The translations under genes and the position numbers were made by a program. This document shows, piece by piece, positions 1,068-58,234 of a stretch of DNA of 64,000 nucleotides. Positions within the stretch are counted from its first letter, which is position 1. Each line of letters opens with the position of its first letter. Source of the DNA: a virus (Duplodnaviria; Caudoviricetes); IMG/VR virus record IMGVR_UViG_3300046167_000724; one strand, written 5' to 3'. The notes below the pieces were generated by a model. That model was not told where the DNA came from, ran no database searches, and saw only the letters and a program-made list of their open reading frames with translations.

Positions 1068-1076
1068 TTAAATATA

Positions 1077-1958
1077 ATGGCAAAAGTAATAGTAACAGGC
1101 GGTGCTGGTTTTATCGGTCACCATTTAGTAAACCTCCTTCTTGATGAAGGACATGAAGTTGATGTGTGGGATAATTTGAGTACTGGTAAACTTGAAAGAT
1201 TACCGTCACATTCAAAATGTACGTTTACAAATTTAGACCTTACGATTGATACACTACCAGATATTAAAGCTGATTGGGTATTTCACCTAGCCGCACCTGT
1301 ATCTGTACAAGAATCGTTAGAAAATCCTTACAAATACGAGCAGGGTTGTTTTATGGCAACTAAGCGTGTGTTAGACTGGTCACTAAAAGCCGGAGTTACT
1401 GATATCTCGTTTGCGAGTACTGCTGCGGTTTATGGTGACCGTGAAGATGTACCATTTACAGAAGACAGTGAGAAAAAACCTATGAGCCCGTATGCTGAAT
1501 GGAAATTAAACTCTGAGCATCTTATAAAAAACTTTACACAACGTTTTAATGTTAGGGCTACTGCACTTCGTTTCTTTAATGTGTTTGGTGAAGGCCAACA
1601 CGACTCAGGTTCTTATGCGCCCGCCGTTGCACTTTTCTTGAAACAATTTGAATCATTCCAACCTATTACAGTTACGGGAACAGGTACACAAACGCGAGAC
1701 TATATTTATGTTAAAGACATTTGTAACGCATTGTACAAATCTATGATACATCCGGCCCAAGAATTTAGAGTGATGAATGTTGGTACTGGTGAAGAAACTT
1801 CAGTACTTGATATTGCAGAAACTTTTGCGGGAGAGATTAAGTTTATACCTGCACGTAAAGAACCTATGAGAAGTTTAGCTGACAGTAGTTTAGCTCAAAA
1901 AAACTTAAACTGGGCACCTGGTAAGAATATCCTCCAATGGATCAATGAAGTAAAATAA
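1077..1958 (+). CDS. NAD-dependent nucleotide-sugar epimerase/dehydratase (extended SDR)
   Basis: TGGAGFIG Rossmann motif, YxxxK (YAEWK), LRFFNVFG, RDYIYVKD. Confidence 0.92.
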   Translation: MAKVIVTGGAGFIGHHLVNLLLDEGHEVDVWDNLSTGKLERLPSHSKCTFTNLDLTIDTLPDIKADWVFHLAAPVSVQESLENPYKYEQGCFMATKRVLDWSLKAGVTDISFASTAAVYGDREDVPFTEDSEKKPMSPYAEWKLNSEHLIKNFTQRFNVRATALRFFNVFGEGQHDSGSYAPAVALFLKQFESFQPITVTGTGTQTRDYIYVKDICNALYKSMIHPAQEFRVMNVGTGEETSVLDIAETFAGEIKFIPARKEPMRSLADSSLAQKNLNWAPGKNILQWINEVK

Positions 1959-1978
1959 ATATATAACGTATCATTAAA

Positions 1979-2006
1979 TAAACAAAACCTATCAGTTTTG
2001 TATAAT
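1979..2006 (+). promoter_or_regulatory. Class-2 promoter candidate (TAAACA-N16-TATAAT) upstream of glmS
   Basis: Same bipartite motif recurs upstream of about 9 genes. Confidence 0.5.
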
Positions 2007-2025
2007 TAAAAGAACATTATAAATT

Positions 2026-4640: not shown

Positions 4641-4660
4641 GTTGATATATAATATAATAG

Positions 4661-4824: not shown

Positions 4825-5142
4825 GTGGAAAGTATTATTAATACATATTTTGGTGAATGGGGTGCTTGGGTAATAGGTGCTCTTTTAGCACTAGCAGTAA
4901 AAGACAGTGTTAGTCAATTATGGAGTGGATTTAGATTCCTAATGGGTACTGATTTTGATGTAGATGATATTGTATATCTTAATGGTACTAAGAAAGCACG
5001 TATTGTAAGACAAGGGATATATAAGACAACATTTTATTTGTACGACCACGAAAGAAAGTTTATTGTACCAAACAATAGACTTTGGTCATTGAATATAGAA
5101 AAACAACTTCCAAAATACGAAGAACATAAAGATGAGATTTAA
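4825..5142 (+). CDS. Small membrane protein, MscS-like beta-domain fragment
   Basis: GTG start; one TM helix then GFRFLMGTDFDVDDIVYLNG...IVRQGIYKTTF...IVPNNRL. Confidence 0.5.
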   Translation: MESIINTYFGEWGAWVIGALLALAVKDSVSQLWSGFRFLMGTDFDVDDIVYLNGTKKARIVRQGIYKTTFYLYDHERKFIVPNNRLWSLNIEKQLPKYEEHKDEI

Positions 5143-6541
5143 ATTATTTGAAGAATTTGTCAATGAAGGCATAAATGATCCAGGCATTCTTAAAGCCTTT
5201 TTCATGGCAGGCGGACCAGGTTCTGGTAAATCATATGTAGCATCAGAGCTATTTGGTTTTCCAAAAGCGGCGACATCATCAGTATCATATGCTACGGGCT
5301 TAAAGCTTGTTAATAATGATAATGCTTTTGAGAAAGCAATTAAAGATGCTGGTTATGACATAGGTAAACTAGCAGATTATGCAAAAGACCCTGAAGTATG
5401 GTCTAAAGTAATGGCGATTAGAGATAAAGCTAAAGGCTTAACTAGAAGAATGCAAGGTAATTATATTTCTGGTCGTTTAGGTCAGGTGATTGATGGTACT
5501 GGTAAAGACTTTAAAAAGATTGCGGGAATGCGTAAGATGTATGCTGACTTGGGTTATGATACTTATATGGTTTTTGTTAACACATCACTTGAAACTGCTT
5601 TAGAAAGAAATAGAATGAGACCTCGTAAACTAGACGATGGTATGGTTGAAAAGATGTGGAAAGCTGTTCAAGATAACTTAGGTAAGTTTCAAAAAGAGTT
5701 TGGTTCTGTCAATATGATTATTGTTGATAATAATGCAACTGATGATGAAGAAGGTATTTTAGACCAGATTGAAAAGCAAATTATGAAAAGAATCAAAGAT
5801 CCAGTTAATAACGTATTGGGTAAAAGATGGATTTCAGATAACTCACCAGAGAACAGAAATAAAAACCAACCATTTGGTGTTAGTGAATCTCTTAATGAGG
5901 GTCTAAAGATTACAGCTAAAATGCCAGCTACAATGAAGAAGTTTATTAACGACTTAGCTAAAGACAGACCGAATACTTGGTCAAACGAGTTAACAGATCT
6001 AGCTAACTCAATTATCGGTGCACACAGAGAGTACGACTTAGACCTAGCTGATTCAGACAAGGTTGGACCACAATACATTAATATTAGAGAGCTACCTGTT
6101 TCAGAGCTAACTCCAAGGTCAATTGACATGATCAATAAGTTATGGAATGACATGGGTGACCAAGCTAAAGAAACTATTTATGATGATTACTCACACTGGT
6201 TTAGAGTAAGTAAGAAAGACAGGCCTCTTTACGGTATGTACGAATCAGCAGTTAACGAAGCTAAGGTAACCAAAAAAGACTTTGATAAAGTAGTTAAGGT
6301 ATTAAGTAAATCAAAATACCCATTTACTATCATGCTTGTTCCAAAATGGAATGAAATCGATATTATTACAGGTCAAGATTCACCAGATGATATTGGTGAT
6401 GACATTATTAAAAGATTAGATTCAGCAGGTTTAAATTGGGGTGGAAACTCAGGTATTACTATTTCAGGAGATTCATCAAATTATTCTAGGAGAGAATATG
6501 ATGAGATTGCAAAAATAAACGGCGGGCACAAACATTATTAA
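5132..6541 (+). CDS. P-loop kinase (Zeta-toxin/AAA_33-like) fused to extra domains; N-terminal CTS-like tag
   Basis: KAFFMAGGPGSGKS Walker A, VIDGTG, VFVNTSLETALERN; begins MRFKLFEEFVNE. Confidence 0.75.
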   Translation: MRFKLFEEFVNEGINDPGILKAFFMAGGPGSGKSYVASELFGFPKAATSSVSYATGLKLVNNDNAFEKAIKDAGYDIGKLADYAKDPEVWSKVMAIRDKAKGLTRRMQGNYISGRLGQVIDGTGKDFKKIAGMRKMYADLGYDTYMVFVNTSLETALERNRMRPRKLDDGMVEKMWKAVQDNLGKFQKEFGSVNMIIVDNNATDDEEGILDQIEKQIMKRIKDPVNNVLGKRWISDNSPENRNKNQPFGVSESLNEGLKITAKMPATMKKFINDLAKDRPNTWSNELTDLANSIIGAHREYDLDLADSDKVGPQYINIRELPVSELTPRSIDMINKLWNDMGDQAKETIYDDYSHWFRVSKKDRPLYGMYESAVNEAKVTKKDFDKVVKVLSKSKYPFTIMLVPKWNEIDIITGQDSPDDIGDDIIKRLDSAGLNWGGNSGITISGDSSNYSRREYDEIAKINGGHKHY

Positions 6542-6543
6542 TT

Positions 6544-7083
6544 ATGAAACACATTAAACTATTTGAATCTTTTATAAATGAAGGTAAACTTACATATGGT
6601 GATGTATATAGTGAGCCTGGTTTTAATCTAATGCAAAAAGATTTAGAAGAAGTATTAGGCAAATACGCTTTTGATTACTTTATTGACAACCCAAAGTCAA
6701 AACAAGTAGAATACAAAATTGAAGGATTAGATGGTGGTGTTTCAGTAACCATATATAGAGATTACAGTAACTATTTTGGTAAATTCTATCTTTACATATA
6801 CTCTAAAAAGTTGAAGCCAAATACGCAAACGATAAAGTTAAAAGATAAAAACGAATTAAATGATATTTTAGGCAAAGTTGCTAAGTTGTTTAATGTAATG
6901 TCACCAAAGCAAGCTGCTATGAAAAAACAGCTTGATGAATTAAATTATAAGTTAGAAGACCTATTATACATGTATGGGGATTCTGATGAAGAGCAGAAAG
7001 CTGCTAGAAATACAAGTAAGTTCAAAAGTTTAGCGAAAAAGGTTGATGCATTACAAGCAAAATATAATAAAACATACGAATAA
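6544..7083 (+). CDS. Putative internal head protein (CTS-like tag)
   Basis: Begins MKHIKLFESFINE. Confidence 0.6.
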   Translation: MKHIKLFESFINEGKLTYGDVYSEPGFNLMQKDLEEVLGKYAFDYFIDNPKSKQVEYKIEGLDGGVSVTIYRDYSNYFGKFYLYIYSKKLKPNTQTIKLKDKNELNDILGKVAKLFNVMSPKQAAMKKQLDELNYKLEDLLYMYGDSDEEQKAARNTSKFKSLAKKVDALQAKYNKTYE

Positions 7084-7736
7084 TGAAGTATATTAAATTA
7101 TTTGAAGCTTTTGTAAATGAAGCTAATAACATGAGAACCTTAAAAGGTTTCTTAAAAGAACTTAAAAAAGAATACGGGCCAACCCCAACTGAACAGTCAT
7201 TAGCAGATTTTATCTATAATAACTACGAAGCTATTACCGGTGAAGATTTAGAAGATTCAAATCCAGCAGCTAATGATCATATTGCAGATATCGTTGCACA
7301 TTTTAAAATGGACGGTGAAGACTTTATGATTGCTTGGGAAGATAGAACAAATGAATCTTTTGTAAATGAAAGAACTGCAAAGGGTGTTGGTCGATACCAT
7401 TCGCCAGATTACAGTGAGTTAATGGACCTTTTAGATATGGCTAAAGAATATACAGACTCTAATCTTTTTAGAGGTAAAAACTTTAAGCTTTATTATAGCG
7501 ATGATTACATTATGTTTGACAACCCAAATGGCGCAGCTGTTGGTTATGACAAAAGAGACATTAGAAAGAAAGACATCTTCCCAGGTAAAAAGGAAGTGGT
7601 TCATACCTTTAAGAAAGCTAACTACAGTCCAGAAGAAACTAAGAAAGAAGTTGAAAAACGTTCTAAAGGTAAAATTTCAGTTGAGATGGCTAAGTGGCAG
7701 GGTGAAGTTACAGGTGTAAATTACATATTTAACTAA
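7083..7736 (+). CDS. Putative internal head protein (CTS-like tag), two segments
   Basis: Begins MKYIKLFEAFVNE; internal NESFVNE. Confidence 0.6.
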   Translation: MKYIKLFEAFVNEANNMRTLKGFLKELKKEYGPTPTEQSLADFIYNNYEAITGEDLEDSNPAANDHIADIVAHFKMDGEDFMIAWEDRTNESFVNERTAKGVGRYHSPDYSELMDLLDMAKEYTDSNLFRGKNFKLYYSDDYIMFDNPNGAAVGYDKRDIRKKDIFPGKKEVVHTFKKANYSPEETKKEVEKRSKGKISVEMAKWQGEVTGVNYIFN

Positions 7737-7739
7737 ACT

Positions 7740-8105
7740 ATGAAACGTGTTTATTTATTTGAAGAATTTATATCTGAAAAGGTCGACCTAGACAGGGTTG
7801 AAAAATACGCTGACGATATATTAGACCCGGTGGATGTAGAGTTTACAAAGCACTTTTTCGACAGACTAACAAGGGCTGAACACGATAAAGAGATTACAGA
7901 TGCTGAGCTTATCGGTTTCTTTAAGAGACTAGCTAAAAAGAAAAAGCAGTTTGACAAATTCATGAAACAATACGATGAGTTTGTTATAAAAGATGATAGA
8001 ACGGACATTAACATCCCGTTCAAAGCAAAGGTTGACCAAATCATTGCAAAAACAATTATGCGTAAAGACGATTTCAAAACGTCTGACCCAGAATATAAGA
8101 TATAA
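7740..8105 (+). CDS. Putative internal head protein; conserved T4-like phage protein
   Basis: Begins MKRVYLFEEFISE; DVEFTKHFFDRL motif. Confidence 0.55.
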   Translation: MKRVYLFEEFISEKVDLDRVEKYADDILDPVDVEFTKHFFDRLTRAEHDKEITDAELIGFFKRLAKKKKQFDKFMKQYDEFVIKDDRTDINIPFKAKVDQIIAKTIMRKDDFKTSDPEYKI

Positions 8106-8107
8106 TT

Positions 8108-9064
8108 ATGAAAAGAGTAAGACTTTTTGAATCATTCATTAATGAAAAAGGGGCAGTCCTAGGCAGAGGCCGTAAGAGTGTTCGTGTTGACTTTAACGAC
8201 AAAAGAAACATGAGATGGACTGTTCATGGAATGCAAGGTGATATTAGTAAAGGTATCGTTATCCTAATAGCTACTGAATACAAACAAGGCCAGCCAAGCT
8301 GGTGGAAACTTGCAACAGTTACAGGCGGTGAAATTAAATTCCAAGAATCAGAATTAGGTGAGATTCCAGAATGGTTAAAGAAAAAAGCTATCAAAGATGC
8401 TGGCAAATATGGATTCAAGAATCTTGAAGAAGTAAATGAATCTATTGAAGTAGTTAACGAAGCTGAAGGTAAGTTTGACAACACACTGCACAAGAAAGTA
8501 TTAAAGGCAATTGCATCTTCTAAAACTTACATGCAAGTTGAAGACGATAGTGATATGCGTGAAATCTTAATTGCTACTAGAGAAAACGGTGATGTTTATG
8601 ACGATACAGCGGGCGCAGATGATATTAAAGAAGCTCAAAGAGTTCAAAAGATTCTTATGAAGAAGTTTCCAGGAATCAAAGTTCAAGTTGAAACGGTTGA
8701 CGAATGGGTACACCTATCAATTAAAGCACCTAGAGTTGCTAATTTCAAATATGCGATAGAAATGTACGACGAGAATGAACCTAATGAATACCGTAGAGGA
8801 ATGGGTGGTTCAGAATTTGCTACATTCAAAGAGATGGTTCAAGCCCTTGAAAGAGAATACTTAAGGGGTGCAAAGGTTGATTTTAAATCTGTTGAAAAAG
8901 AACTAGAAGCTATCGACACGTATCCTAGAGACAGGTTCACTGGATGGCACCAGAGTAAAGGTATTAAAATCGCAAGTGGTGTAAAATGGGGTAGTACAAC
9001 AGTAGAAATCCAAGTAGCTAAAGAAACAGACGAGATAGACTATAAAACAAAGAAGGGTATTTAA
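8108..9064 (+). CDS. Putative internal head protein (CTS-like tag), multi-segment
   Basis: Begins MKRVRLFESFINE; internal VNESIEVVNEAE. Confidence 0.6.
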   Translation: MKRVRLFESFINEKGAVLGRGRKSVRVDFNDKRNMRWTVHGMQGDISKGIVILIATEYKQGQPSWWKLATVTGGEIKFQESELGEIPEWLKKKAIKDAGKYGFKNLEEVNESIEVVNEAEGKFDNTLHKKVLKAIASSKTYMQVEDDSDMREILIATRENGDVYDDTAGADDIKEAQRVQKILMKKFPGIKVQVETVDEWVHLSIKAPRVANFKYAIEMYDENEPNEYRRGMGGSEFATFKEMVQALEREYLRGAKVDFKSVEKELEAIDTYPRDRFTGWHQSKGIKIASGVKWGSTTVEIQVAKETDEIDYKTKKGI

Positions 9065-9072
9065 AGATAACC

Positions 9073-9687
9073 ATGATTAAAACATACGATGACTTCCTTT
9101 TGGAAAAGAACAGACCTTTTAGTGCAACGTCAATTACAGTTTTCGACCTAGATGATACATTAGTTATTACTGATGCAAAAATCAAGGTATGTAATATTGT
9201 AACAGGTGATTGCCATGAACTAACTCCTGAAGAATTCAATGAATATGAATCTAATCCAAATGACAAATTAGACTTTGATGATTTCAAATCACTTGAGATT
9301 ATGAAAGCTGGTGACCTTATTCATTATTACCTTAAAATCTTAGCAGAAGCTTATAAAATGAAAAGAGCAGTTGGTATCGTTACGGCGAGAGACGACCGTG
9401 AGATGATTTACAAGTGGCTTAAAGAGCACGTAGGCTTCCACATTGCTAAGGACCTTATTTATGCAATCAACGACCCTGTACACGGTCTAAAGGGTTCTAT
9501 AGCTGAGAAAAAGCAACAAGCATTCAGAGAATACATTGATATGGGATATAAGAAGATTCAGTTCTTCGATGACGATGATGCTAACCTAAGATTAGTTAAA
9601 GAATTACAGTCAGATTACCCGGATGTAGAAATTTCAGTATATAAAGCAGACAAGAGTAAGTTTAAAAGAATAGAAAAGAGAAAGTAA
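9073..9687 (+). CDS. HAD-superfamily phosphatase with CTS-like tag
   Basis: FDLDDTL motif I, IVTAR motif II, FFDDD motif IV; begins MIKTYDDFLLE. Confidence 0.75.
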   Translation: MIKTYDDFLLEKNRPFSATSITVFDLDDTLVITDAKIKVCNIVTGDCHELTPEEFNEYESNPNDKLDFDDFKSLEIMKAGDLIHYYLKILAEAYKMKRAVGIVTARDDREMIYKWLKEHVGFHIAKDLIYAINDPVHGLKGSIAEKKQQAFREYIDMGYKKIQFFDDDDANLRLVKELQSDYPDVEISVYKADKSKFKRIEKRK

Positions 9688-11693
9688 TGAGTACATTTGG
9701 TGACATTAGAGCAAGATTAGCTTCAGTACTTGAGTACGGCGTTTTTGAAGACGTTGAGATGAAAGACGAAGCTGGTTTGATTGATTATCTTAAAGGCCTT
9801 AAAACAGAGCCAAGACCTAATACTACATTTAAAGTAGCTGGTAGAACGATACCTAGACCTGAGATTGAAAAACTAATTGGTAAGGCAGGTATTACTTTTG
9901 GCGATGATAAATCTGAAACTACACTGGATGACAAGCAACTTAAAAAGATGGGTGACTATTCTGAAAAGATGTCTGCCGAATTTGATAAGATTGCTTTTGA
10001 AGGTGAAGACGAAGAAGTATTCAAGGCTGGTTTTGATAAACTAATGAAAGGTGGAAAAATCTCTAAAGAAGATGCAGAGATTGTTGCTAAATACGCTAAA
10101 ATTGGTGAAACAGAAAGCGGTAAGAAGCTTAAAGTTTATTTTGCTAATACAACGCCGGGTGAATTCAGACAAGGTGCAAGAGAAAAAGTACTAGATGTTA
10201 CTGATTCAGACGGTAGTTTACAAAAAGCACTTATGGATGCTGGTATGGAATCAACACCATCTACAACTGTAGGCGGTGGCGTAAAGCCAAAGATTGGCCC
10301 TAAAGCAATTAACCCTAATAAAATTATCGGTAAGAAGCGTAAGGTTGAGGTACAATCTGAAAAGACAGCCGACGGTAAAATCAAATCTGTTACTGTTGAC
10401 GGTAAGAAAATGAACCGTATTGAACCACCAGATGAAAAGGCACTTAACGAAAATACATTACAACTGGAAGCTGTTAAAAAGCAAAATCCAGACTTAACAG
10501 ATAAACAAGTTGACGCACTTGTACAAAGAACGCGTAGAGCAATCCAAAGACACAACGAGTCTCTAGAGAATCTTGCTAATTTGAAAGATGTTGAGTTCCT
10601 GGACCCTGTTGAAGGTCTAGAGGGCTTGAATCAAAAAGAACGTGGTGATAAGATTCAAAAAGAATACTCTATGGTCATTCATGGAAAGCTTAAAGAGCTA
10701 ATGGGTGATAACCCTACAAAAGCAGAACAAGATATTCTAGCAGACATTGAAAAGATGTCTACAATTGAAAGTCAAGAAGACTTTGATAATGCTGTTATTG
10801 AAACACTTCGTAAAATGGACAAAGTTGATTCAATCAGAAAAGGTTCCGCTGACTTGGCTGAATCATTTGTATACATGTCTCTTAATAAAAAAGGCCTTAG
10901 AACAGAACTTCCAGCTGGTGAGAACTTCCCAGTTGCTGACGTTATCTCTCTAGGTGGTGATATCGACATGAATGAACTAGACCCTAACGACCCTGAATAT
11001 GCTTCTAAGATTGCTATGCAAGGTCTACCTCTAGTAGTTAACCTTGAGATGGAGGGTGGTATCTCAGTAAAGAAAGACGGTGGTGCTGCATCTGCTGCAA
11101 AATCAAAACTCGGTGAATCAACGTTCAAAAACGAAAAGACGGCTGAGCAGCTTTACAAACTGGTAGATAACCATAATGCATTCTTAGGCACTCAATCGGA
11201 ACCAACAACTGATGAGACTATTAAAGAAGGTACTAAACAAATGGATGAGGTTGCAAACTGGGCAATTGATAACGGTGTCTTAACTAAAGAAGAGGTTGAT
11301 GGTTTAAATTACGGCGGTAGGTCACCTAAAGAATGGGCTAAAGATACATTAGATAAATGGGAAGACGAAGGTAAAGGTCCTTTTGCAGCTGCAACTCTTA
11401 AAGGTTTGGAAATGCACGCAAAACAAGCACTTCTTTTATCTGCAATACATAACTCTGAACTCACAGAACAAAGTTATGGTAATGTTAACGTCAGTACTAA
11501 AAAATCTGATGGTGGTATTCATGTTACAGATGGTATTACAAGTGCTTCATTAATGGGTACTTCTTTAAATCCAGGTTTCAAATTTGTTAAAGACAAAGAC
11601 GGTAATACTATTCCAAGACCGAACGCGGTTTATACTGCAAATCTTAAACATGCGGAATGGGACGCAGAGTCAGAACGTTTTACAACAAAATAA
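9687..11693 (+). CDS. Large hypothetical protein, possible C-terminal PD-(D/E)XK-like nuclease domain
   Basis: 668-aa ORF; AESFVY...LPAGENFPVADVI...ISVK spacing resembles a restriction-endonuclease core. Confidence 0.35.
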   Translation: MSTFGDIRARLASVLEYGVFEDVEMKDEAGLIDYLKGLKTEPRPNTTFKVAGRTIPRPEIEKLIGKAGITFGDDKSETTLDDKQLKKMGDYSEKMSAEFDKIAFEGEDEEVFKAGFDKLMKGGKISKEDAEIVAKYAKIGETESGKKLKVYFANTTPGEFRQGAREKVLDVTDSDGSLQKALMDAGMESTPSTTVGGGVKPKIGPKAINPNKIIGKKRKVEVQSEKTADGKIKSVTVDGKKMNRIEPPDEKALNENTLQLEAVKKQNPDLTDKQVDALVQRTRRAIQRHNESLENLANLKDVEFLDPVEGLEGLNQKERGDKIQKEYSMVIHGKLKELMGDNPTKAEQDILADIEKMSTIESQEDFDNAVIETLRKMDKVDSIRKGSADLAESFVYMSLNKKGLRTELPAGENFPVADVISLGGDIDMNELDPNDPEYASKIAMQGLPLVVNLEMEGGISVKKDGGAASAAKSKLGESTFKNEKTAEQLYKLVDNHNAFLGTQSEPTTDETIKEGTKQMDEVANWAIDNGVLTKEEVDGLNYGGRSPKEWAKDTLDKWEDEGKGPFAAATLKGLEMHAKQALLLSAIHNSELTEQSYGNVNVSTKKSDGGIHVTDGITSASLMGTSLNPGFKFVKDKDGNTIPRPNAVYTANLKHAEWDAESERFTTK

Positions 11694-11714
11694 TTTAAAA
11701 AAAACGGCATAATA

Positions 11715-11755
11715 TTTTTTTATGTCGTTTTTTTTGCTTATATTTATAATGTAAT
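11715..11755 (+). promoter_or_regulatory. Class-1 (early) promoter repeat
   Basis: ttttttatgtc...ttttgcttatatttataatgtaat. Confidence 0.65.
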
Positions 11756-11769
11756 TAAAAGAAAGCATT

Positions 11770-12003
11770 ATGGCTAAAGCAAAAAAGACAGTTGAAGTTC
11801 AGGAATTAAAACGTTGGGCTAATTCTATTTTGAGTACACCATTAGGTGAAGTTGAACACATTACTCGTGATTTCAAAGACGGGATTTGTGTGATGATTGA
11901 AAAAGTACTTCACGAAGCAAATGCATATAACGGTTATATGTTCTTGAATAATGAAGACAGTGAATACCAAACTTACGGTTACTTAACTCGCCAATACCTA
12001 TAA
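11770..12003 (+). CDS. Hypothetical early protein
   Basis: ORF directly after a class-1 repeat. Confidence 0.7.
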   Translation: MAKAKKTVEVQELKRWANSILSTPLGEVEHITRDFKDGICVMIEKVLHEANAYNGYMFLNNEDSEYQTYGYLTRQYL

Positions 12004-12005
12004 TT

Positions 12006-13073
12006 ATGGAATTAGTCATTGAAAAACCAATTGACGAATTATTAAGTAGGATTCCTTTAGACGCAAAGAAAGAGGTCCTAAAGTTTTTAGCTAAAGATGA
12101 AGTCGATGAAGAACATTTCATGGACCGTCTTGGCACATACGAATCTATACAAGAACTTCAAGCAAATTACCATCTTGAGATGGAAGATCAATTCTCAAGA
12201 GATGTATTCATCATTCAACCGAAAGGATTAGGTATGGGTGAGGTTTGGATTGCTTGGTTAGTTAAAGGTTCTGTTATCTCAGGTGGTGGTGAATCATTTG
12301 ATGTATTGTCTAATGGTACACAATATGAAGCCAAAGCATACAACTTCTTTCCACACTACAAGACCAAAGAATTACAACTTGGTAAATATGAAGGTGTATG
12401 GAGACTTGGTAACGCAGGTGCTATGAGTAACTTTACCTTTGTAAAGCACTTAACGCATGCCGTTGATTTGATTTCTGAATTATATGCAAATACAAACGCA
12501 CATATACCCGAATTAAAAAATGTACTCGATATCGTAAAAGATATTGAGCGATTAAGTCCAAAATACGGAATGGCTGCGGATTTCTCAAGAGGTGAAGTTA
12601 GTAAGAAGAAAATGCGAATGATGTTCAAGGTCATTGATATGTTGCACAATTATGTTGCAAAACATCATGGCGATTACGACATTGTTACATTTGCGGCGTC
12701 AACTCCTGGTAATCCCAACATAACATTTAAAATACAACCAGCGACAGCTAAAGAAATTAAAGAAGGTAAGATTAAGATTATAGCACCTATTAATGAATAT
12801 GACATAAGTGATGTATTTGTACTTAGACGTATGCTTGTCAAGTCAAAATACATTAGAGAAGGTGTAAGTGCTATTATAACCGACATTAATAAAGACTTAG
12901 ACCTTGTTGAAGCCAAATATGAAGGTATTAACTTTATTATCTTTAGAAAGAGTGGTATGAACATTACAAGCAAAATTAGACGTATTGAAGGTACTGCACT
13001 TGAAGACTTAAAAACTGCAGTTGGTGAAGTTTTTAATCTATCTTCAGCATCTGTTCGTGTTCGTGAGAAATAA
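12006..13073 (+). CDS. Putative PD-(D/E)XK endonuclease
   Basis: GMGEVW...GGGESFDV...YEAK active-site-like spacing. Confidence 0.5.
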   Translation: MELVIEKPIDELLSRIPLDAKKEVLKFLAKDEVDEEHFMDRLGTYESIQELQANYHLEMEDQFSRDVFIIQPKGLGMGEVWIAWLVKGSVISGGGESFDVLSNGTQYEAKAYNFFPHYKTKELQLGKYEGVWRLGNAGAMSNFTFVKHLTHAVDLISELYANTNAHIPELKNVLDIVKDIERLSPKYGMAADFSRGEVSKKKMRMMFKVIDMLHNYVAKHHGDYDIVTFAASTPGNPNITFKIQPATAKEIKEGKIKIIAPINEYDISDVFVLRRMLVKSKYIREGVSAIITDINKDLDLVEAKYEGINFIIFRKSGMNITSKIRRIEGTALEDLKTAVGEVFNLSSASVRVREK

Positions 13074-13182
13074 TTGAAAAAAACTTGTAAAAAGTTGCTA
13101 AATCTCGCAAACAAAGTGTGGTTTTTGATATATATAATATATGAGGAATAACTCCTTGTAAAATCAATATTCTTATAGTATT

Positions 13183-13353
13183 ATGGCTAATTACATTTCA
13201 GTGGTCACTCCTACTACTGAAATTAGTCTAGCCCCAGCAATAAGCATGAATGAGTATACGCTTGACATGGCAATTGAAGCCATTAATACCGTAGAAGAGC
13301 ATGCTGATGAATGCATGGATTGGGCGATGTTCGGTGTCGGTGGGCCATCTTAG
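13183..13353 (+). CDS. 56-aa small protein (not in ORF track)
   Basis: MANYISVVTPTTEISLAPAISMNEYTLDMAIEAINTVEEHADECMDWAMFGVGGPS; upstream GATATATATAA, downstream terminator. Confidence 0.55.
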   Translation: MANYISVVTPTTEISLAPAISMNEYTLDMAIEAINTVEEHADECMDWAMFGVGGPS

Positions 13354-13361
13354 AGAACATT

Positions 13362-13390
13362 AAGGGACGTGAGTTTTTGCGTCCCTTTTT
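13362..13390 (+). terminator. Intrinsic terminator
   Basis: aagggacg-loop-cgtccctt followed by T-run. Confidence 0.75.
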
Positions 13391-13393
13391 ATT

Positions 13394-13437
13394 TGAAACA
13401 ACATCTATATTCAATCGTATAATAATTAGATATATAA
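13394..13437 (+). promoter_or_regulatory. Tandem class-2 (TGAAACA-N17-TATAAT) and class-3 (GATATATAA) promoter candidates
   Basis: Both motifs seen directly upstream of ATG 13443. Confidence 0.55.
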
Positions 13438-13442
13438 TAAAT

Positions 13443-13970
13443 ATGAAGTTTATCAAAACATTTGAAGATTACGAGCAGGTTTCACCTGCATTAAAAGCAC
13501 ATATTGAAGAAGGTTTAGACTTAACTAACTCGTTCTTTAGATTAGGCTCAGACGCATACAGTGAACTGTTTGAAGAAGTTAAACAATACTGGGATAAAGG
13601 TAATGTTATATTAAAAGGACCTTCTGGTTGGATGGCAAAGAACTTACAAGTTGGTAAGAAAGCCGTGTACCAGGGTAAAGCTGTTAAGCTTGATTCACCA
13701 CAAAGAGGTGGTTCAAAGAAATTTATCGTATATCGTGCGTCTGAGAGAACTGATGCTGATGGTAACATAGTTGCTAAAAAAATCGAATGGGGTGATAAAA
13801 CGGGTTTATCTATCAAGAACGATGACCCAGGAAGAGCTGCAAGTTTTTGGGCTAGACACAAATGTGATTCAGCTGCAAAGATGGACCCTAATAAAGCGGG
13901 ATTCTGGGCATGTTATGCACCAACGCTTTTCGGAAAGCAAATTGGTATTAAATCAGACCAACCCTGGTAA
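13443..13970 (+). CDS. Conserved phage protein (DUF6321-like C-terminus) with CTS-like tag
   Basis: Start moved to MKFIKTFEDYE; KNDDPGRAASFWARHKC...KAGFWAC. Confidence 0.6.
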   Translation: MKFIKTFEDYEQVSPALKAHIEEGLDLTNSFFRLGSDAYSELFEEVKQYWDKGNVILKGPSGWMAKNLQVGKKAVYQGKAVKLDSPQRGGSKKFIVYRASERTDADGNIVAKKIEWGDKTGLSIKNDDPGRAASFWARHKCDSAAKMDPNKAGFWACYAPTLFGKQIGIKSDQPW

Positions 13971-14059
13971 TTAATGTTAATTCTAAAAATGATAAGTATA
14001 GTAATAATAGGTTGGATACTTATCAATAGAATTTTGTATTGGATGGATAAGCATATCAA

Positions 14060-14434
14060 ATGATTACAAATAAATTAGTTGACGTCACAGATCTAAAAAA
14101 AGAAGACTGCAAATGTAAAAATTGTGGTTGTGGTAAAATGACAATGGAAGAAATGGTCACAATGATAGATGACCAAACATTACCATTTGTACAAACTAAT
14201 CACGAGGGTTATATTACTAGAGAATTTGACGCAAGTGCACCTGAACATTTATTCAAATGGCATTTTGATGATGCTGACCGTGAAATCACAGCACTTAATG
14301 AAAATGATTGGAGGTTTCAATTTGACAATGAATTACCAATTCCAATGTCTAGTACTGTTTTTGTTAAAAAGGGTGAGTATCATAGACTTATTAAAGGCAC
14401 ATCACCACTTACTTTAAAAATAATTGAAAAATAA
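14060..14434 (+). CDS. Conserved phage protein, cupin-like
   Basis: KWHFD...DWRFQFDNELP...GEYHRLIKG. Confidence 0.55.
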   Translation: MITNKLVDVTDLKKEDCKCKNCGCGKMTMEEMVTMIDDQTLPFVQTNHEGYITREFDASAPEHLFKWHFDDADREITALNENDWRFQFDNELPIPMSSTVFVKKGEYHRLIKGTSPLTLKIIEK

Positions 14435-14486
14435 TTGCTAAAAAGTTTTTTTATATCAAATAAATTGCCTATATTTATATAGTAAT
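14431..14486 (+). promoter_or_regulatory. Class-1 (early) promoter repeat
   Basis: ttgctaaaaagtttttttatatc...ttgcctatatttatatagtaat. Confidence 0.7.
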
Positions 14487-14498
14487 TGAAAGTAGGAT

Positions 14499-14996
14499 AT
14501 GAAAAGAAAGATTTTACCAATTATCATTTTAACATCACCGCTGTTATTTAGTAACGGTAGTGCGTTTAATGATACACGACTATTTGAAACACCAATAGTA
14601 CTCACCAGTAAAGAAATCAAAGCGGTTCCCAGTGTTGACGTGGAATCTAAATTTATAAATGCATTGATTCAAGTAGAGTCAAGAGGTCGTGATTCAATTA
14701 TTGGTGATAAGCATCTTGTAGGTAATGAAGCCGTTGGTGCTCTTCAAATTCGACCTATAATGGTTCGTGAAGTAAATCGCATCTTGAAGATAAAGAAAAG
14801 TGATAAGCGATTTAAATTGAAAGACCGATTTTCACGTGAGAAATCTATTGAGATGTTCATGATTTGGAAAAACTATCATCATTCTGATGATGAGTTTGAA
14901 ACTATTGCTAGAAATTGGAATGGTGGTCCAAAAGGCTATAAGTCTAGTAGAACTGAAAAATACTGGGTAAAGGTACAACAAGAGCTAGATATATAA
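14499..14996 (+). CDS. Lysozyme-like/lytic transglycosylase with N-terminal signal
   Basis: IQVES catalytic Glu, GALQI, ARNWNGGP; hydrophobic N-terminus. Confidence 0.7.
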   Translation: MKRKILPIIILTSPLLFSNGSAFNDTRLFETPIVLTSKEIKAVPSVDVESKFINALIQVESRGRDSIIGDKHLVGNEAVGALQIRPIMVREVNRILKIKKSDKRFKLKDRFSREKSIEMFMIWKNYHHSDDEFETIARNWNGGPKGYKSSRTEKYWVKVQQELDI

Positions 14997-15017
14997 TAAA
15001 ATAATATATTCAAATAT

Positions 15018-15284
15018 ATGAAAAATCTAAGAACATTTGAATCATTTTTAAATGAAAAGAAGCCTAGTCACTATATGGCTGAGCTAGTTGATATGCTATC
15101 TAATTCAGATTCAATGGAAATGACACCAGATGAATTTAAAGACTATTGTGTTAAGGAATTTGGTATAGACCCAGATGATGCGCTTGACATTCTAGATGCT
15201 TACTGGACATTAGGTGCTAGAGACAGGTACCGCTTTAACGACGACCAATGGATTAAATGGTTAAACAAATTAGGTATTAAGTAA
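15018..15284 (+). CDS. Putative internal head protein (CTS-like tag)
   Basis: Begins MKNLRTFESFLNE. Confidence 0.6.
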   Translation: MKNLRTFESFLNEKKPSHYMAELVDMLSNSDSMEMTPDEFKDYCVKEFGIDPDDALDILDAYWTLGARDRYRFNDDQWIKWLNKLGIK

Positions 15285-15727
15285 TGAAGAATATTAAAAC
15301 ATTTGAAGCTTTTGTTAATGAAAGTATAGAATATGCTTCAACAAAGGTTAATGGTAAGAACGTTGTTTCATCATGGGCAGGTTCAGCAGATAGTGAAAGA
15401 GATTTCATTAAGATGATTAAAGACATGCCTGAAACTCTTGAATCAATCAGTGTACAGTCTGATGCGTCTGCATCATATTCGGCTTCCGAAGAATTTAAAG
15501 GTCCTATCAATTCATCTAAGAAAGCTAAAATCATTAAGCTTGTAAAAGATGTAACGAAAGCTTTTAAATCAGAAGGTGATGAAATTACATCATACGTATT
15601 AAGTTCGTTTGCACCAATTTATGTTAAGGACCATGATTCATCTAGGGCATATATCCAGTACAAAACCAAAAAGTCAGATAAATTTGGTAAAGATATGGCA
15701 TCTGGTAAATACGGACCGCTAGATTAG
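15284..15727 (+). CDS. Putative internal head protein (CTS-like tag)
   Basis: Begins MKNIKTFEAFVNE. Confidence 0.6.
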   Translation: MKNIKTFEAFVNESIEYASTKVNGKNVVSSWAGSADSERDFIKMIKDMPETLESISVQSDASASYSASEEFKGPINSSKKAKIIKLVKDVTKAFKSEGDEITSYVLSSFAPIYVKDHDSSRAYIQYKTKKSDKFGKDMASGKYGPLD

Positions 15728-29456: not shown

Positions 29457-29505
29457 CCGATTGATTACATAGTAAATATAGGCAAAATATACGACATAAA
29501 AAAAT
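29457..29505 (-). promoter_or_regulatory. Class-1 (early) promoter repeat
   Basis: Reverse complement reads ttttttatgtcg...ttttgcctatatttactatgtaatcaatcgg. Confidence 0.75.
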
Positions 29506-29524
29506 AAATGTGCAACTTTTTTGT

Positions 29525-54221: not shown

Positions 54222-54572
54222 ATGAAACACGTCAAAGCCTTTGAATCATTTATTTCTGTAAATGAAAAGTACATTATGTCCGACTTGGAAAATGAGTTAG
54301 GTATCGTACTAGACCTATGGGATAATGGTGACCACTTAGAATTAGGTAAAATTGAAGTTCCTAAAAGGTTAAGGGGTTCTGGTGTAGGGACTGAAGCGAT
54401 GGAACGTATTATTGCGTTTGCAGACAAAGAGGGTAAAGACATTAGACTCACACCATCAAAAGATTTTGGTGCATCTTCTGTAGCTAGACTTGAAAAGTTC
54501 TATAAGGGTTTTGACTTTGTTAAGAATAAAGATTTAAAGTATAAGGACACTATGGTCCGCTATGCTAAATAA
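54222..54572 (+). CDS. GNAT acetyltransferase with CTS-like tag
   Basis: IEVPKRLRGSGVGT acetyl-CoA motif, LEKFYKGFDF; begins MKHVKAFESFISVNE. Confidence 0.8.
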   Translation: MKHVKAFESFISVNEKYIMSDLENELGIVLDLWDNGDHLELGKIEVPKRLRGSGVGTEAMERIIAFADKEGKDIRLTPSKDFGASSVARLEKFYKGFDFVKNKDLKYKDTMVRYAK

Positions 54573-54573
54573 C

Positions 54574-55272
54574 ATGAATAACATATTTAATTTTACAGAT
54601 TTTGTTAATGAGGGTAGAAGCTCTTATGATAGTATTGCATCTAAACTAGTTAAGCACACTTTTAAGAAGTGGGTAAACGGTTATAAAGGTGGTGAAGCTA
54701 CACTTAACTTTACAGAAAGCTTAGTTTTAAACAGACTAGAATTTGATGTTGATTTCAACCTACATGTTACCAAGCGTGTTAAAGGTTTTGAAATACTTAA
54801 TAGCACGGGTGCTGATTCAAGAACAACTGATGATGAAGGTGACGAGCAAGACCCGTATATTATTATAGACTTCGCTGTTAATCCTGATTGGATTCCTGGT
54901 GAATGGTCTACTATTTATTTTTATTTAGCAGATGTTGTAAGACATGAGATTGAGCATATCACACAAGGTGGTGAGGATATTGGTAATTACAGAATAGGTA
55001 AACCAAATGAAGATGATGGTATGTTAAGACAGATGATTAAGATTGGTCTATTACCAAAAGCACAATATTTCATGCTACCTAAAGAGGTTGATGCAAACAT
55101 ACAGGGTCTTAGATATGAGGCTAAAAAAAGAAAAGAGTCGATGGCCGATGCTGTTAATAGATATCTAGACACGCAAGAACAATCTGGTGAAATAAATGGA
55201 AAAGAGCGTGAAGACATTCTTACACTTTGGAAAAGACGTGCAAAACAAATAGGAGGTATACCTAAATTTTAA
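54574..55272 (+). CDS. Zincin-like (HExxH) protein with CTS-like tag
   Basis: RHEIEH, YFMLPKEVDA; begins MNNIFNFTDFVNE. Confidence 0.65.
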   Translation: MNNIFNFTDFVNEGRSSYDSIASKLVKHTFKKWVNGYKGGEATLNFTESLVLNRLEFDVDFNLHVTKRVKGFEILNSTGADSRTTDDEGDEQDPYIIIDFAVNPDWIPGEWSTIYFYLADVVRHEIEHITQGGEDIGNYRIGKPNEDDGMLRQMIKIGLLPKAQYFMLPKEVDANIQGLRYEAKKRKESMADAVNRYLDTQEQSGEINGKEREDILTLWKRRAKQIGGIPKF

Positions 55273-55276
55273 AATT

Positions 55277-56398
55277 ATGAAACATTTAAAACTATACGAG
55301 GATTTTATTAATGAAGCAAGTCGTGATACTGAAATGGTTGATGGCATTGTTGATTTACTATTAAAGGTAGACGATATAGATAACCGTAAAGAAATGGCTA
55401 TTGAAACTATTGCAGACTTTGATACTGAAGGCGTTGAATACAACAAGGGTGAATTCCTTAGCAAAATTGGTTTAAGTGAACTAGAACTTAATGAAGCAAG
55501 GCCTGAGTTCCATGATTCAGATGCACCAGATGCATATGGTAGATTCAGGGACTTAAGCATTAAGGATTTAGCTAAGTGGTTAATTGATACACGTAACGGT
55601 GACGTTAAAAAGATTTCATCTTCACTTACACAACAAATTGTATTTAATAGAAATGATGACCCTGAATATGCTACTAAGATGGAAAAAACACGTAAAGAGG
55701 TTTATAAGCAACTTGGTAGAGAAGACTTATTAGAAGGTGATGCTAAACCAGGTCCGGACAAATATATGACTGGGCTTGATAAAGAAGACGAAACCGATAA
55801 AGAAGATCAAATCAAAAAGCAGCGTGAAATGGATGATGATGATTCATCAGCTTATAAAGAAATGCCAGGTGACGAAGAGGCTAGAGAGAAGGGTCAAGTT
55901 AAAACATCTAAGCATGTTAAGAAATACCATGAGCTTTATGGTGACGAAAAGAACGAAGCGGTATCTGAATTACAACTTGATGAAGCTGTAAAATTAGGTT
56001 GCACTGAATGTGACGAAGTTAATACACTTACTAAGTGGCAAAAGAATGGCGGTTACTGTCCATCTTGTAAAACGTCTTCATCAGCTGTTGAAGAAGGTAA
56101 GGTTAACGAAGAAAAGGCTGAAGGTGATAGAAGCAAATTAGATAACGCTGATATTGAAACAGCTCTTGCTAAAAAAGCAGAAGAGACGGGCGTACCAATT
56201 GGTCTTATTAGAATTATCATGAGACGTGGTATGGCGGCTTGGAAAACAGGTCATAGGCCAGGTGCTGGCCAAGAACAATGGGGATATGCTAGGGTTAACG
56301 CGTTCCTTACTAAAGGTGCTGGTACTTGGGGTGATGCTGATAAAGATGTTGCTAAAGAAGTTAGAGACGGTGGTTACGATAAAAACCTTAAATCATAA
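55277..56398 (+). CDS. Multi-segment protein with DUF5824-like C-terminus and CTS-like tag
   Basis: RRGMAAWKTGHRPGAGQEQWGYARVNAFL; begins MKHLKLYEDFINE; CxxC-CxxC insert. Confidence 0.65.
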   Translation: MKHLKLYEDFINEASRDTEMVDGIVDLLLKVDDIDNRKEMAIETIADFDTEGVEYNKGEFLSKIGLSELELNEARPEFHDSDAPDAYGRFRDLSIKDLAKWLIDTRNGDVKKISSSLTQQIVFNRNDDPEYATKMEKTRKEVYKQLGREDLLEGDAKPGPDKYMTGLDKEDETDKEDQIKKQREMDDDDSSAYKEMPGDEEAREKGQVKTSKHVKKYHELYGDEKNEAVSELQLDEAVKLGCTECDEVNTLTKWQKNGGYCPSCKTSSSAVEEGKVNEEKAEGDRSKLDNADIETALAKKAEETGVPIGLIRIIMRRGMAAWKTGHRPGAGQEQWGYARVNAFLTKGAGTWGDADKDVAKEVRDGGYDKNLKS

Positions 56399-57036
56399 TG
56401 AAGAATTTATTTTTATTTGAAGAGTATATCAGGAACAATAAGATTAGTGGTGAGGCTCATCACGTATCGTATGACCCTATTGATAACGAGTCTTTGTATG
56501 AAGTTGTGAATTCTATTATGGGTGGTGAGCTTACAGAATCAGAGGTCCAAGACCTACTTGATGAAGGCTTATTCTCGTGGTTGGGTTCTTTATTTTCAAA
56601 TCCAAAAAAGAAGCGTGAGTTAGATAAGTTAGCACAAAAACTTGTTGAGGTTAGAGTTGATATTGCGAAAGTTAATATCGAAGCTGAAAATATTGAAGCA
56701 TTTGAAGAAGAGTTAAACGCAAAAGAAGATATGTATGCAAATACACTTCCAGCTAAAGCTATAAAATCAAACAAGACTTCAATGACTGACCTTAAAGGTG
56801 CGCAGTTAAAAGAACTCGAAAGTGATGTTATAATGCGAATGGATGTTATTGGTGAAGAGAATGATAAGCTTAAAACATATGTTAATAAGGTAAAGCTTGA
56901 CTCTAGAATACAATCAACTGAAAAAATTATGCGTATGGCAGACGGCCAAATTAAAAAAGTACTTTCTAAAATGGCGATGCAAGATAAAAAGAAAGATAGA
57001 GAACTAACAAAAGAACTTAAGGTTCAAATGAATTAA
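56398..57036 (+). CDS. Coiled-coil putative head protein (CTS-like tag)
   Basis: Begins MKNLFLFEEYI. Confidence 0.55.
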   Translation: MKNLFLFEEYIRNNKISGEAHHVSYDPIDNESLYEVVNSIMGGELTESEVQDLLDEGLFSWLGSLFSNPKKKRELDKLAQKLVEVRVDIAKVNIEAENIEAFEEELNAKEDMYANTLPAKAIKSNKTSMTDLKGAQLKELESDVIMRMDVIGEENDKLKTYVNKVKLDSRIQSTEKIMRMADGQIKKVLSKMAMQDKKKDRELTKELKVQMN

Positions 57037-57039
57037 ATT

Positions 57040-57270
57040 ATGAAAAGAGTAAAATTATTCGAAGCTTTTACAAAAAGCCAAGGTGAAGAGATTAGCAAAG
57101 ATCAATTTAAGAATATTGCTAAGGGTTCAAACGTTACATATATGGGTGATGATTTTGAAGTTGCAGAGTCAGACGATACACTTCTAATATTAAAGCATAT
57201 AAAGTCTGGTAAAAAGATTCATGTTAATTACAATATGTTTAATAAAAAAGGTGCTATTTCATCTAAATAA
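57040..57270 (+). CDS. Small putative head protein (CTS-like tag)
   Basis: Begins MKRVKLFEAF. Confidence 0.55.
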   Translation: MKRVKLFEAFTKSQGEEISKDQFKNIAKGSNVTYMGDDFEVAESDDTLLILKHIKSGKKIHVNYNMFNKKGAISSK

Positions 57271-57322
57271 AATTAAAAAACAAATAAATATCTTTACAAG
57301 ATATATAAATAAATAAAATATT

Positions 57323-57514
57323 ATGTATTTTTTAATTATTACATTAACGATTGCCGCGGTTTTATTCATTGATTATAAATTTATTAAATCAAAAAAAACT
57401 AAAACAGTTGGTGCGTCTAAAGACAAGGTTATCGTTGTAGATAAAAGGCCTACTAATATTTCGGTTAATAGAATTACTGATAATATAATTCCCACTAAGG
57501 AAGAAATGGACTAA
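57323..57514 (+). CDS. Small membrane protein
   Basis: N-terminal TM helix then a basic stretch. Confidence 0.6.
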   Translation: MYFLIITLTIAAVLFIDYKFIKSKKTKTVGASKDKVIVVDKRPTNISVNRITDNIIPTKEEMD

Positions 57515-57553
57515 AATATTATTAGATATATAATAAAATAATAACATATTAAA

Positions 57554-58234
57554 ATGGCTAAATTAAAATCATTCGAAGAGTACGTTGCTGACATTGACAC
57601 GGCTGAAGAAATCGAAAACACAGAAGTTGAAATGGGCGAACCTACGGAAGCAGAAGGTGAAGAAGAAGTTGTTACAGACGAACAAGGTGAAGATGACGTT
57701 GAAGTAAAAGACAATGTTGAAGGTGAAGAAGCCGGTGAAGAAGCTGAAGAACTTGAAGCAGACACTAAAGAAGTTTCATCTGAAGAAGACAAAGGTATTG
57801 TAGATTCAGCTGATGATGAAGCACCATCTGAAGAAGATGCTATGACTGAATCTGAGGATTCTGACGACGAAGATGAAGACGATTCTGACGACGAAGATGA
57901 AGACGATTCTGACGACGAAGATGAAGACGATTCTGTAGAAGTTGTAGCGGTTGCTGAAATGCTTAAAGAGGCATATGAGGCTTGTAAAAACGAAGCTAAA
58001 GTTTGGGAAGAAGATATGCACGATGAGCATACTATTGAATCTTACCTAAAAGAAAATGCGGCATTAGTTGCTATGATGGCAGTTAATACATTAAAAGAAA
58101 TGAAAGAAGACATGACCCTTGAAATGTACGAGGCTACATGTAATGAATTAAAAGAATCTTACGCTAAGAAGATTGACGAGATGAAAGAAGCTTGGTCTGC
58201 TGAAGGTGAAGAGGTTGAAAGCGACGAAGAGTAA
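57554..58234 (+). CDS. Highly acidic protein with CTS-like tag (candidate prohead core/scaffold)
   Basis: Begins MAKLKSFEEYVAD; D/E-dominated. Confidence 0.6.
   Translation: MAKLKSFEEYVADIDTAEEIENTEVEMGEPTEAEGEEEVVTDEQGEDDVEVKDNVEGEEAGEEAEELEADTKEVSSEEDKGIVDSADDEAPSEEDAMTESEDSDDEDEDDSDDEDEDDSDDEDEDDSVEVVAVAEMLKEAYEACKNEAKVWEEDMHDEHTIESYLKENAALVAMMAVNTLKEMKEDMTLEMYEATCNELKESYAKKIDEMKEAWSAEGEEVESDEE
57857..57935 (+). repeat. In-frame 24-bp tandem repeat x3 (DSDDEDED)
   Basis: gattctgacgacgaagatgaagac. Confidence 0.9.

Follow-up and report, generated by a model that had tools for sequence, protein, structure and literature searches.

Why should at least 14 otherwise unrelated proteins, encoded on one fragment of a phage genome, begin with nearly the same 13 residues? 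The fragment is IMG/VR record IMGVR_UViG_3300046167_000724, a 64,000-nucleotide stretch of Caudoviricetes DNA analysed here as a whole (hereafter the window; positions refer to it unless another genome is named). It has roughly 35% G+C and dense genes mostly on one strand, and belongs to an uncultivated marine jumbo-phage lineage related to Tenacibaculum phage PTm1. The shared N-terminal peptide (hereafter the tag) has the consensus M-K-x-[IV]-K-[LT]-[FY]-E-x-[FY]-[IVL]-N-E or a close variant, and opens nine open reading frames (ORFs) in 5132-15727 and five at 54222-58234. A preliminary description of the sequence had read it as a counterpart of the capsid targeting sequence (CTS) of phage T4, which would load an injected effector system into the head. 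We put at roughly 70% the probability that the tag is the functional CTS equivalent of this lineage, judging by its residue pattern and its genomic setting. The tag is probably the label of a large set of proteins that are packaged in the head and can be predicted from sequence, and we give about even odds that much of this cargo would be delivered to the host.

Chance does not account for the shared starts. A nine-column position-specific scoring matrix applied to the 93 ORFs of the window returned 12 N-terminal matches and one internal match, compared with 0.08 in total for residue-shuffled proteins. Among the tagged genes of the window, tag codons vary at synonymous sites and the DNA 5′ of the ATG is unconserved, so conservation and selection act on the peptide. 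The nine ORF starts of the first cluster had all been placed correctly in the preliminary description, and each is the first ATG of its frame except 13443. That the proteins are otherwise unrelated is borne out by the bodies behind the tag, which comprise an AAA_33/zeta-like P-loop kinase, a HAD/PNK-type phosphatase, a GNAT acetyltransferase and a DUF5824 protein, the rest being without an assigned family. A supposed weak tenth member at 9687 (MSTFGDIRARLASVLE) did not survive scoring: it does not reach the tag score, and its differing start motif is common to a gene of one relative. Five further tagged ORFs lie at 54222, 55277, 56398, 57040 and 57554, and the relatives carry tags too. A near-identity DNA search of the tagged region against GenBank phages gave no match, and neither did tblastn with a 21-residue tag query.

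The closest precedent is in T4, where the CTS is carried on IPI, IPII, IPIII and Alt propeptides and is removed by the prohead protease gp21 (Mullaney and Black 1996; PMC9026906, PMC3012670). T4 ipII and ipIII do begin with MKTYQEFIAE, as stated in the preliminary description, and ipI opens with MKTFKEFTSTTTPVSTITE. Loading of IPIII needs only its first 10 residues, within which residues 4 and 7 have been mapped as the main targeting positions and residues 8 and 10 as those for processing; the CTS-bearing internal proteins are ejected, as is Alt, which has a C-terminal propeptide as well; and the CTS has already been suggested as a general route by which T4-like phages load varied proteins (PMC9026906). 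The tag can be aligned with this leader position by position: K-[LT]-[FY]-E-x-[FY]-[IVL]-N-E places F/Y at T4 position 4, F/Y at 7, V/I/L at 8 and E at 10. In each of the 14 window tags, two F/Y residues stand three apart. Directly behind the second aromatic, [IVL]-x-E is present in nine of the 14, eight of these reading [IVL]-[NS]-E; the 54222 tag has V-N-E two residues farther on, and those of 13443, 56398, 57040 and 57554 are without the processing motif. Across 61 distinct tags, the positions left free by the search pattern hold V/I/L in 47 and E in 42. Among the tags that come still closer to the T4 leader are MIKTYDDFLLE (9073) and MKLFTYQEFLNE, the latter from a related genome (G003). 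Like the T4 CTS, then, the tag is a short N-terminal leader on unrelated proteins, with two aromatics three apart followed by [ILV]-x-E; unlike it, the leader has 13 residues rather than 10, with three extra after the initiator Met, and carries Asn at P2. In T4, replacing the P1 Glu by Asp blocks the cut.

The resemblance extends to the head. The ORF at 61278 matches genes of PAU, Tenacibaculum phages PTm1, PTm5 and pT24, Chryseobacterium phage MA9V, Flavobacterium phage MaF61 and the Lak phages, and PTm1 encodes Portal_T4, Peptidase_S77 and Gp23 above Pfam cut-offs. Among IMG/VR relatives, G001 has ~90% DNA identity to the window over 33.6-64 kb, and G002, G003 and G004 (175 kb) have cargo genes in common with it; all four bear the same tags, and the CheckV completeness of the relatives implies a genome of roughly 260-280 kb. 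Pfam searches for S77 and Gp23 in G001-G004 returned neither; these fragments are 17-66% complete, and G004 ends within a T4-type portal gene. With the G004 portal as query we obtained 381 IMG/VR loci; in those whose DNA extends past the portal, a gp2-like gene and the portal are followed by a tagged ORF (one of them beginning MKHVKLFEQFVNEAKT...), a protease-scaffold ORF of 600-830 amino acids (aa), the capsid protein and an ORF starting MIDKFENWFNKINE. Scores in locus L039 exceed the curated cut-offs for Portal_T4 (243.7 bits), Peptidase_S77 (45.9 bits) and Gp23 (152.5 bits). The T4 gene order of the head module is held both there and in G007, a complete genome of 256,444 bp with terminal repeats, which carries 17-18 tagged genes, 13 of them within one 7-kb block.

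The protease of these relatives has 27% identity to T4 gp21 (E = 5e-12) over a region spanning the GELxHP (GELDHP) and SSR (ISSR) motifs, which we take to be the seats of the catalytic His and Ser. Right behind the protease domain, RVNE-S is invariant (22 of 22 distinct sequences) and is followed by gp22-like H[IV]AEK repeats. The tagged ORF between portal and protease occupies the place of T4 core genes 67 and 68. As in T4, the lineage has a gp20 portal, a gp21-type S77 protease, a gp22-like scaffold and a gp23 capsid protein, although protease and scaffold form one ORF here. A complex prediction for the tag (40 residues) with the L039 protease domain (200 residues) gave a score of 0.00 and a mark of 0.34, and counts neither way. 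In another locus, L036, whose portal is 97% identical to that of G004, the gene behind the portal is tagged and runs off the locus end after at least 1315 aa (MKHISLFEQFTAIAVELVNE...; L036 11618-15562, + strand).

We searched IMG/VR with a degenerate DNA pattern for M-K-x-x-K-x-F-E-x-F-x-N-E, and the matches listed comprise more than 120 stretches. Among these, there are up to nine copies per 15 kb, some matches lie on a 482-kb contig, and S77 is encoded by 17 of the 23 large tag-bearing contigs, both 100%-complete ones included, the six without S77 being rated 35-81% complete. With a relaxed pattern, G007 yielded 17 matches, every one of them on the gene strand, compared with one for a control pattern. 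The relaxed pattern found eight copies in LR756500.1, a 462-kb uncultured phage in GenBank, where six of seven inspected copies open ORFs as MK[YF][IL]K[ES]YE-x-F-[IVL]-x-E. The pattern has no match in Melnitz, HTVC008M or T4, and T4 is missed because its leader has Gln where the pattern demands Glu.

Comparison with the relatives shows that the tag is portable. Gene 5132 (5132..6541, + strand; tag MRFKLFEEFVNE, residues 1-12) encodes a three-module protein of 469 aa: a P-loop kinase to about residue 250, an SESLNE junction ending at residue 256 (nucleotide 5899), a middle module, a YESAVNE junction ending at residue 376 (nucleotide 6259) and a C-terminal module. The same kinase is tagged alone in G007; in G002 and G003 a tagged module of 72 residues stands in front of it. 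That 72-residue module is a separate tagged gene in the window (57040), and the last module of 5132 is a standalone tagged gene in G004, one junction lying exactly at that gene's start point. Tag remnants mark the fusion points (SESEINE-G, SESLNE-G, YESAVNE-A), and similar strings occur in two further window proteins: the 217-aa product of 7083..7736 (+; tag MKYIKLFEAFVNE), where NESFVNE-R has its second Glu at residue 96 (nucleotide 7370), and the 318-aa product of 8108..9064 (+; tag MKRVRLFESFINE), where IEVVNE-A is part of NESIEVVNE, ending at residue 118 (nucleotide 8461).

The form ES-x(0,1)-[ILV]NE has three internal copies in 12 tagged window proteins, compared with 0.03 in shuffles and none in 81 untagged proteins. 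Plain [ILV]NE was also counted in tagged proteins and reaches just about twice the background, so that the longer form alone is clearly enriched. The junctions keep the processing half of the tag; three of the four matched ones lack both aromatics, and NESFVNE in 7083 retains one. With [ILV]-N-E kept and the aromatics mostly gone, the junctions look as expected from the T4 mapping, provided that an address is required by the first module alone and a cut site by every module. In G004, two large proteins of the cargo locus, encoded at 27197-24171 (-) and 36282-34042 (-), contain three and two internal ES-V-[VI]-NE-A repeats, respectively, and are polyprotein-like. A 629-aa protein of the same genome (29120-27231, -) has a tag-like motif at its C terminus (...MMTFEQFINNQDI); T4 Alt also has a C-terminal propeptide (PMC9026906).

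Cargo genes come and go. The HAD phosphatase orthologs in G004 and G007 are untagged, and for six of the nine tagged genes of the first cluster no homolog turned up in the five relatives compared, which matches the high turnover of T4 internal-protein genes. In G007, 3 of 18 tagged genes have a G004 homolog, versus 119 of 318 untagged genes.

The enzymes among the cargo bear on what a delivered payload might do. The 5132 product matches Pfam AAA_33 and Zeta_toxin. In its AlphaFold model (overall pLDDT 88), residues 1-10 have a pLDDT of 47 and lie outside the kinase fold, and the best PDB folds are a bacterial polynucleotide kinase and zeta toxin, with modest TM-scores. The kinase family comprises more than 7,700 clusters, and we read leader classes from the best 120 of these homolog clusters (P0001-P0120). 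Within these 120 there are at least four classes: the present tag, M..LLRxLIRExLLNE, MKELLSEI...FIEMITE and a bare MNE. In a 45-sequence alignment across the classes, an invariant Glu-Gly pair stands ahead of the first strand, the Glu being the last residue of each leader. Kinase homologs in T4-like phages begin MKTFAELQE-G (Melnitz) and MIPFILKE-G (HTVC008M). Different phage lineages may each have put their own address on the same kinase cargo. The HAD-type phosphatase (9073..9687, +; 204 aa, DLDDT motif) carries MIKTYDDFLLE, the most T4-like tag in the window, and matches phrog_415, annotated 'polynucleotide kinase' (E = 1.1e-9). Searches of PDB sequences with the HAD phosphatase and with a kinase profile brought up nothing better than a weak match to L-seryl-tRNA(Sec) kinase. 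It is a reasonable idea, going by these domains, that the 5132 kinase and the 9073 phosphatase would act as a split Pnkp-like pair.

Packaging would call for late expression, and several tagged genes had been said to sit behind a late-like motif. The nearest upstream motif is late-like for all 13 tagged genes to which a motif could be assigned (Fisher p = 0.003), and none of the 15 genes directly behind an early-type element is tagged. One late-like copy, GATATATA at 4644..4651 (+), lies upstream of the 4825-11693 gene block, and further copies lie at 5016, 13127, 13429, 14988, 15793, 54210 (AATATATA), 57300, 57525 and 61248. In loci L039, L047 and L103 the motif, as [AG]ATATATA, closely precedes the portal gene, the protease gene and the post-capsid genes. 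The early-type element TTTTTTATGTC-N12-TTGCTTATATTTA at 11720..11765 (+) heads the untagged genes 11770 and 12006, and another copy, at 14451, stands before the SLT-like gene 14499, likewise untagged; within 5132-15727, the untagged 11770/12006 and 14499 are exactly the genes headed by this element. Cassettes of small genes and a gene for a DnaB-like helicase stand behind it in the form TTTTTTATGTC-N12-TTGCCTATATTTA. A 45-100-nucleotide element (TTTTTTATGTC-N12-TTGCCTATATTTAC...), likely an early promoter family, has at least 18 copies in total, across 35340-52223 and at 11720, 14451 and 29499-31977; all are co-oriented with the gene cassettes downstream, and no tagged gene is headed by any of them. 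The product of 14499-14996 (+) has a signal-peptide-like start and a weak match to SLT transglycosylases (E = 0.004).

The mechanism we propose is the known T4 one in expanded form. Late in infection, tagged proteins would be made alongside the head proteins, and the short amphipathic leader, with its two aromatics three apart, would dock the cargo on the scaffolding core of the assembling prohead. A gp21-type serine protease, fused to a gp22-like scaffold, would then cut after the Glu of [IVL]-N-E and free the mature protein inside the head, with further cuts at the internal ES-x-[ILV]-N-E junctions of multi-module cargo. Part of the cargo, including the kinase, the phosphatase, the acetyltransferase and many fast-evolving small proteins, would probably be expelled with the DNA. 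The acidic 57554 product and the product of the tagged gene between portal and protease in the relatives would more likely be core or scaffold parts. The one indirect sign of the proposed cutting lies in the retained ES-x-[ILV]NE junctions and the invariant RVNE-S behind the protease domain. Docking, cleavage, residence in the virion and ejection are steps that we infer from the parallel with T4.

Set against the preliminary description, this account keeps the head address and narrows the effector claim. The likeness to the T4 CTS, the T4-type head with S77, the tagged gene in the head module of the relatives, the late-like motif before tagged genes and the portability of the tag support the earlier reading in part; as a label for the whole set, 'injected effector system' is too broad, because some tagged proteins, such as the 57554 product and that of the gene between portal and protease, look like parts of the prohead core or scaffold. 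The number of distinct tagged genes, 14 in the 64 kb of the window and 17-18 in the complete relative G007, does exceed the handful of T4. A more ambitious version remains tentative, and we regard it as possible rather than probable: a capsid-delivered multi-enzyme payload readable from sequence, in which dozens of proteins per genome would share one address, some would be polyproteins cut in the capsid, and the 5132/9073 pair would act before phage expression, for example by undoing RNA-cleaving defences.

Several observations weigh against the CTS interpretation. Mature cargo has a pI of 4.0-9.4 and is not uniformly basic, as T4 internal proteins are, and Glu or [ILV] is absent from some leaders (56398, 57040, 57554 and 13443). 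Because the search pattern itself fixed the two aromatics, finding them in 100% of tags is circular and is not counted as evidence. The 'early' and 'late' labels rest on short AT-rich motifs and their gene associations, and we infer the window's own protease and capsid genes from those of its relatives. We also dropped an argument that took the capsid-protein start MA-x-LINE for another instance of the cleavage rule: when aligned with T4 gp23, it proved to be the start of a T4-like propeptide (AE-L/I-x-x-x-W-x-P-L/I-L/I-E), and since the capsid protein keeps this N-terminal propeptide, MA-x-LINE cannot support the rule. The pattern search revealed no tags in PAU (a single match, no more than the control pattern gives), MaF61, pT24 or MA9V-1, and we found no cultured phage bearing the tag. 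In PTm1, which has the best annotation among the cultured relatives, there is no tag family, just isolated CTS-like starts, such as MKLFETINE.

Could the tag serve head assembly without any injected payload? It would then be a docking and cleavage signal of the prohead core, and its cargo would help to build the head or condense DNA before being degraded or retained. The tagged gene that the relatives have between portal and protease, where T4 has gp67/gp68, fits this idea, as does the conserved 57554 product, which is extremely acidic like scaffold proteins. We nevertheless consider it unlikely for the set as a whole, given that a P-loop kinase, a HAD phosphatase and a GNAT have no obvious assembly role, that most tagged genes turn over quickly between relatives, unlike assembly genes, and that T4 CTS-bearing internal proteins and Alt are ejected (PMC9026906). 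More improbable still is an address outside the capsid, by which tagged proteins would be handed to a ClpA/B-like AAA+ unfoldase for timed turnover or gathered on a cytoplasmic hub as an enzyme complex. The window does encode a two-ring Clp-type AAA+ protein (43202-45211), a short amphipathic helix such as the tag could bind many partners, and packaging is itself a prediction; yet such an address would leave unexplained the position-by-position match to T4, the tagged gene in the head module, the co-occurrence with S77 and the retained [ILV]NE junctions.

Two further explanations dispense with an address altogether, and we hold each to be very improbable. If the shared start were a nucleotide-level feature, either an optimum for translation initiation where the host lacks Shine-Dalgarno sites or a short stretch of homology through which cassettes are shuffled, the AT-rich codons, dense gene arrays and clearly shuffled modules would follow readily. 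It would not follow that residues are kept while synonymous sites vary and upstream DNA is unconserved, that highly expressed head genes are untagged, that the motif also occurs inside proteins and at their ends, or that related phages keep the residue pattern with other codons and residues, such as KEYEEF in LR756500.1. Descent of all tagged genes from one ancestor, with the N terminus alone still recognizable, would agree with their clustering and with the many bodies that lack a detectable family, but the bodies include unrelated folds (P-loop kinase, HAD, GNAT) and the same domain occurs both tagged and untagged.

The remaining tagged genes of the window are all on the + strand. The product of 6544..7083 (179 aa, tag MKHIKLFESFINE) has a basic body (pI 8.9) without an assigned function and no homolog among five related genomes; that of 7740..8105 (121 aa, tag MKRVYLFEEFISE) matches phrog_23027, whose function is not assigned. 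The 175-aa product of 13443..13970 has a tag-like start, MKFIKTFEDYE, at the second ATG of an ORF that opens at 13311; this start is also present in G002, G003 and G004, and because it lacks the [ILV]-N-E end, cleavage there is doubtful. The first cluster closes with 15018..15284 (88 aa, tag MKNLRTFESFLNE) and 15284..15727 (147 aa, tag MKNIKTFEAFVNE). The second cluster, at 54222..58234, holds the GNAT acetyltransferase gene (54222), the DUF5824 gene (55277) and genes 56398, 57040 and 57554. The last of these (57554-58234) is tagged and kept in all relatives, and its product, with a net charge of about -80 and a pI of 4.05, resembles a scaffold protein, a core component or a DNA mimic more than it does an enzyme. 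The rejected candidate 9687-11693 (+) and a G007 gene (83112-84248, -) have a common start, M-x-T-x-G-D-I-[KR]-A-R-[LF]-A-S, with different bodies, that of the G007 product resembling window 12006-13073. Atlas look-ups on 8108 and 9687 gave nothing usable.

Other genes of the window fill out the picture of the phage. Just upstream of the tagged block, 429-3888 (+) encodes a DNA methyltransferase-like protein, a nucleotide-sugar epimerase and a full-length homolog of GlmS (glutamine-fructose-6-phosphate aminotransferase), which suggests phage-directed sugar metabolism. Collagen triple-helix repeats (Pfam Collagen, 891 bits) take up nearly all of a 2680-aa ORF at 16729-24771 (+), which probably encodes a giant fibre protein; its surroundings have a G+C content of 0.44-0.48, and long ORFs are open there in several frames. 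The two-ring ClpA/ClpB-type AAA+ protein at 43202-45211 (+; AAA_2, AAA_lid_9, ClpB_D2-small) has its best phage matches in uncultured phages of 630-640 kb, and a homolog of the UV-damage endonuclease UvdE (Pfam, 197 bits) is encoded at 53027-53992 (+).

Head-packaged proteins are known from other phages. The giant phages phiKZ and SPN3US are reported to have many internal proteins in large heads, cut after Glu by a T4-related protease and then ejected (PMC5694885, PMC7411985, PMC10052503), and the Dar anti-restriction proteins of phage P1 are reported to be packaged in the head and injected, and to protect incoming DNA (PMC9024508, PMC12810830). Our literature search found the CTS described only for T4 and close relatives, with P1 and SPN3US as analogies, and nothing on the tag-bearing lineage. 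The Dar proteins have no sequence likeness to the tag, and they are loaded by ordered protein-protein incorporation rather than by a shared cleavable decapeptide. The propeptides of phiKZ and SPN3US are long and dissimilar, with a S/A/G-x-E cleavage motif, and we know of no short, portable, near-identical address tag reported for those phages.

Relative to T4, the new elements are the lineage, the number of genes that carry the tag, cargo that includes enzymes, a protease and scaffold fused in one ORF, multi-module proteins with kept cut sites and the metagenomic breadth. Like the internal-protein genes of T4, the tagged genes turn over fast; unlike them, they encode several enzymes and multi-module proteins with internal cleavage-type junctions, are not uniformly basic in their products, and belong to uncultivated jumbo phages, related to phages of Flavobacteriia, that are known here from sequence alone.

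Injected phage proteins act ahead of any phage gene expression, and those of T4 include counter-defence factors, but such proteins are hard to find because they have no common fold. If our interpretation is true, the injected or head-internal proteins of abundant uncultivated marine jumbo phages, including enzymes and polyprotein-like cargo, could be listed from sequence, and the T4 address and its protease rule would have been preserved on both sides of a very deep divergence within the lineage of T4-like heads. The tags would also be natural variants of the leader already used for loading foreign proteins into T4 heads. Should the payload reading prove true as well, the tag and its relatives, present on hundreds of uncultivated jumbo-phage contigs, would open a way to a general metagenomic listing of injected proteins.

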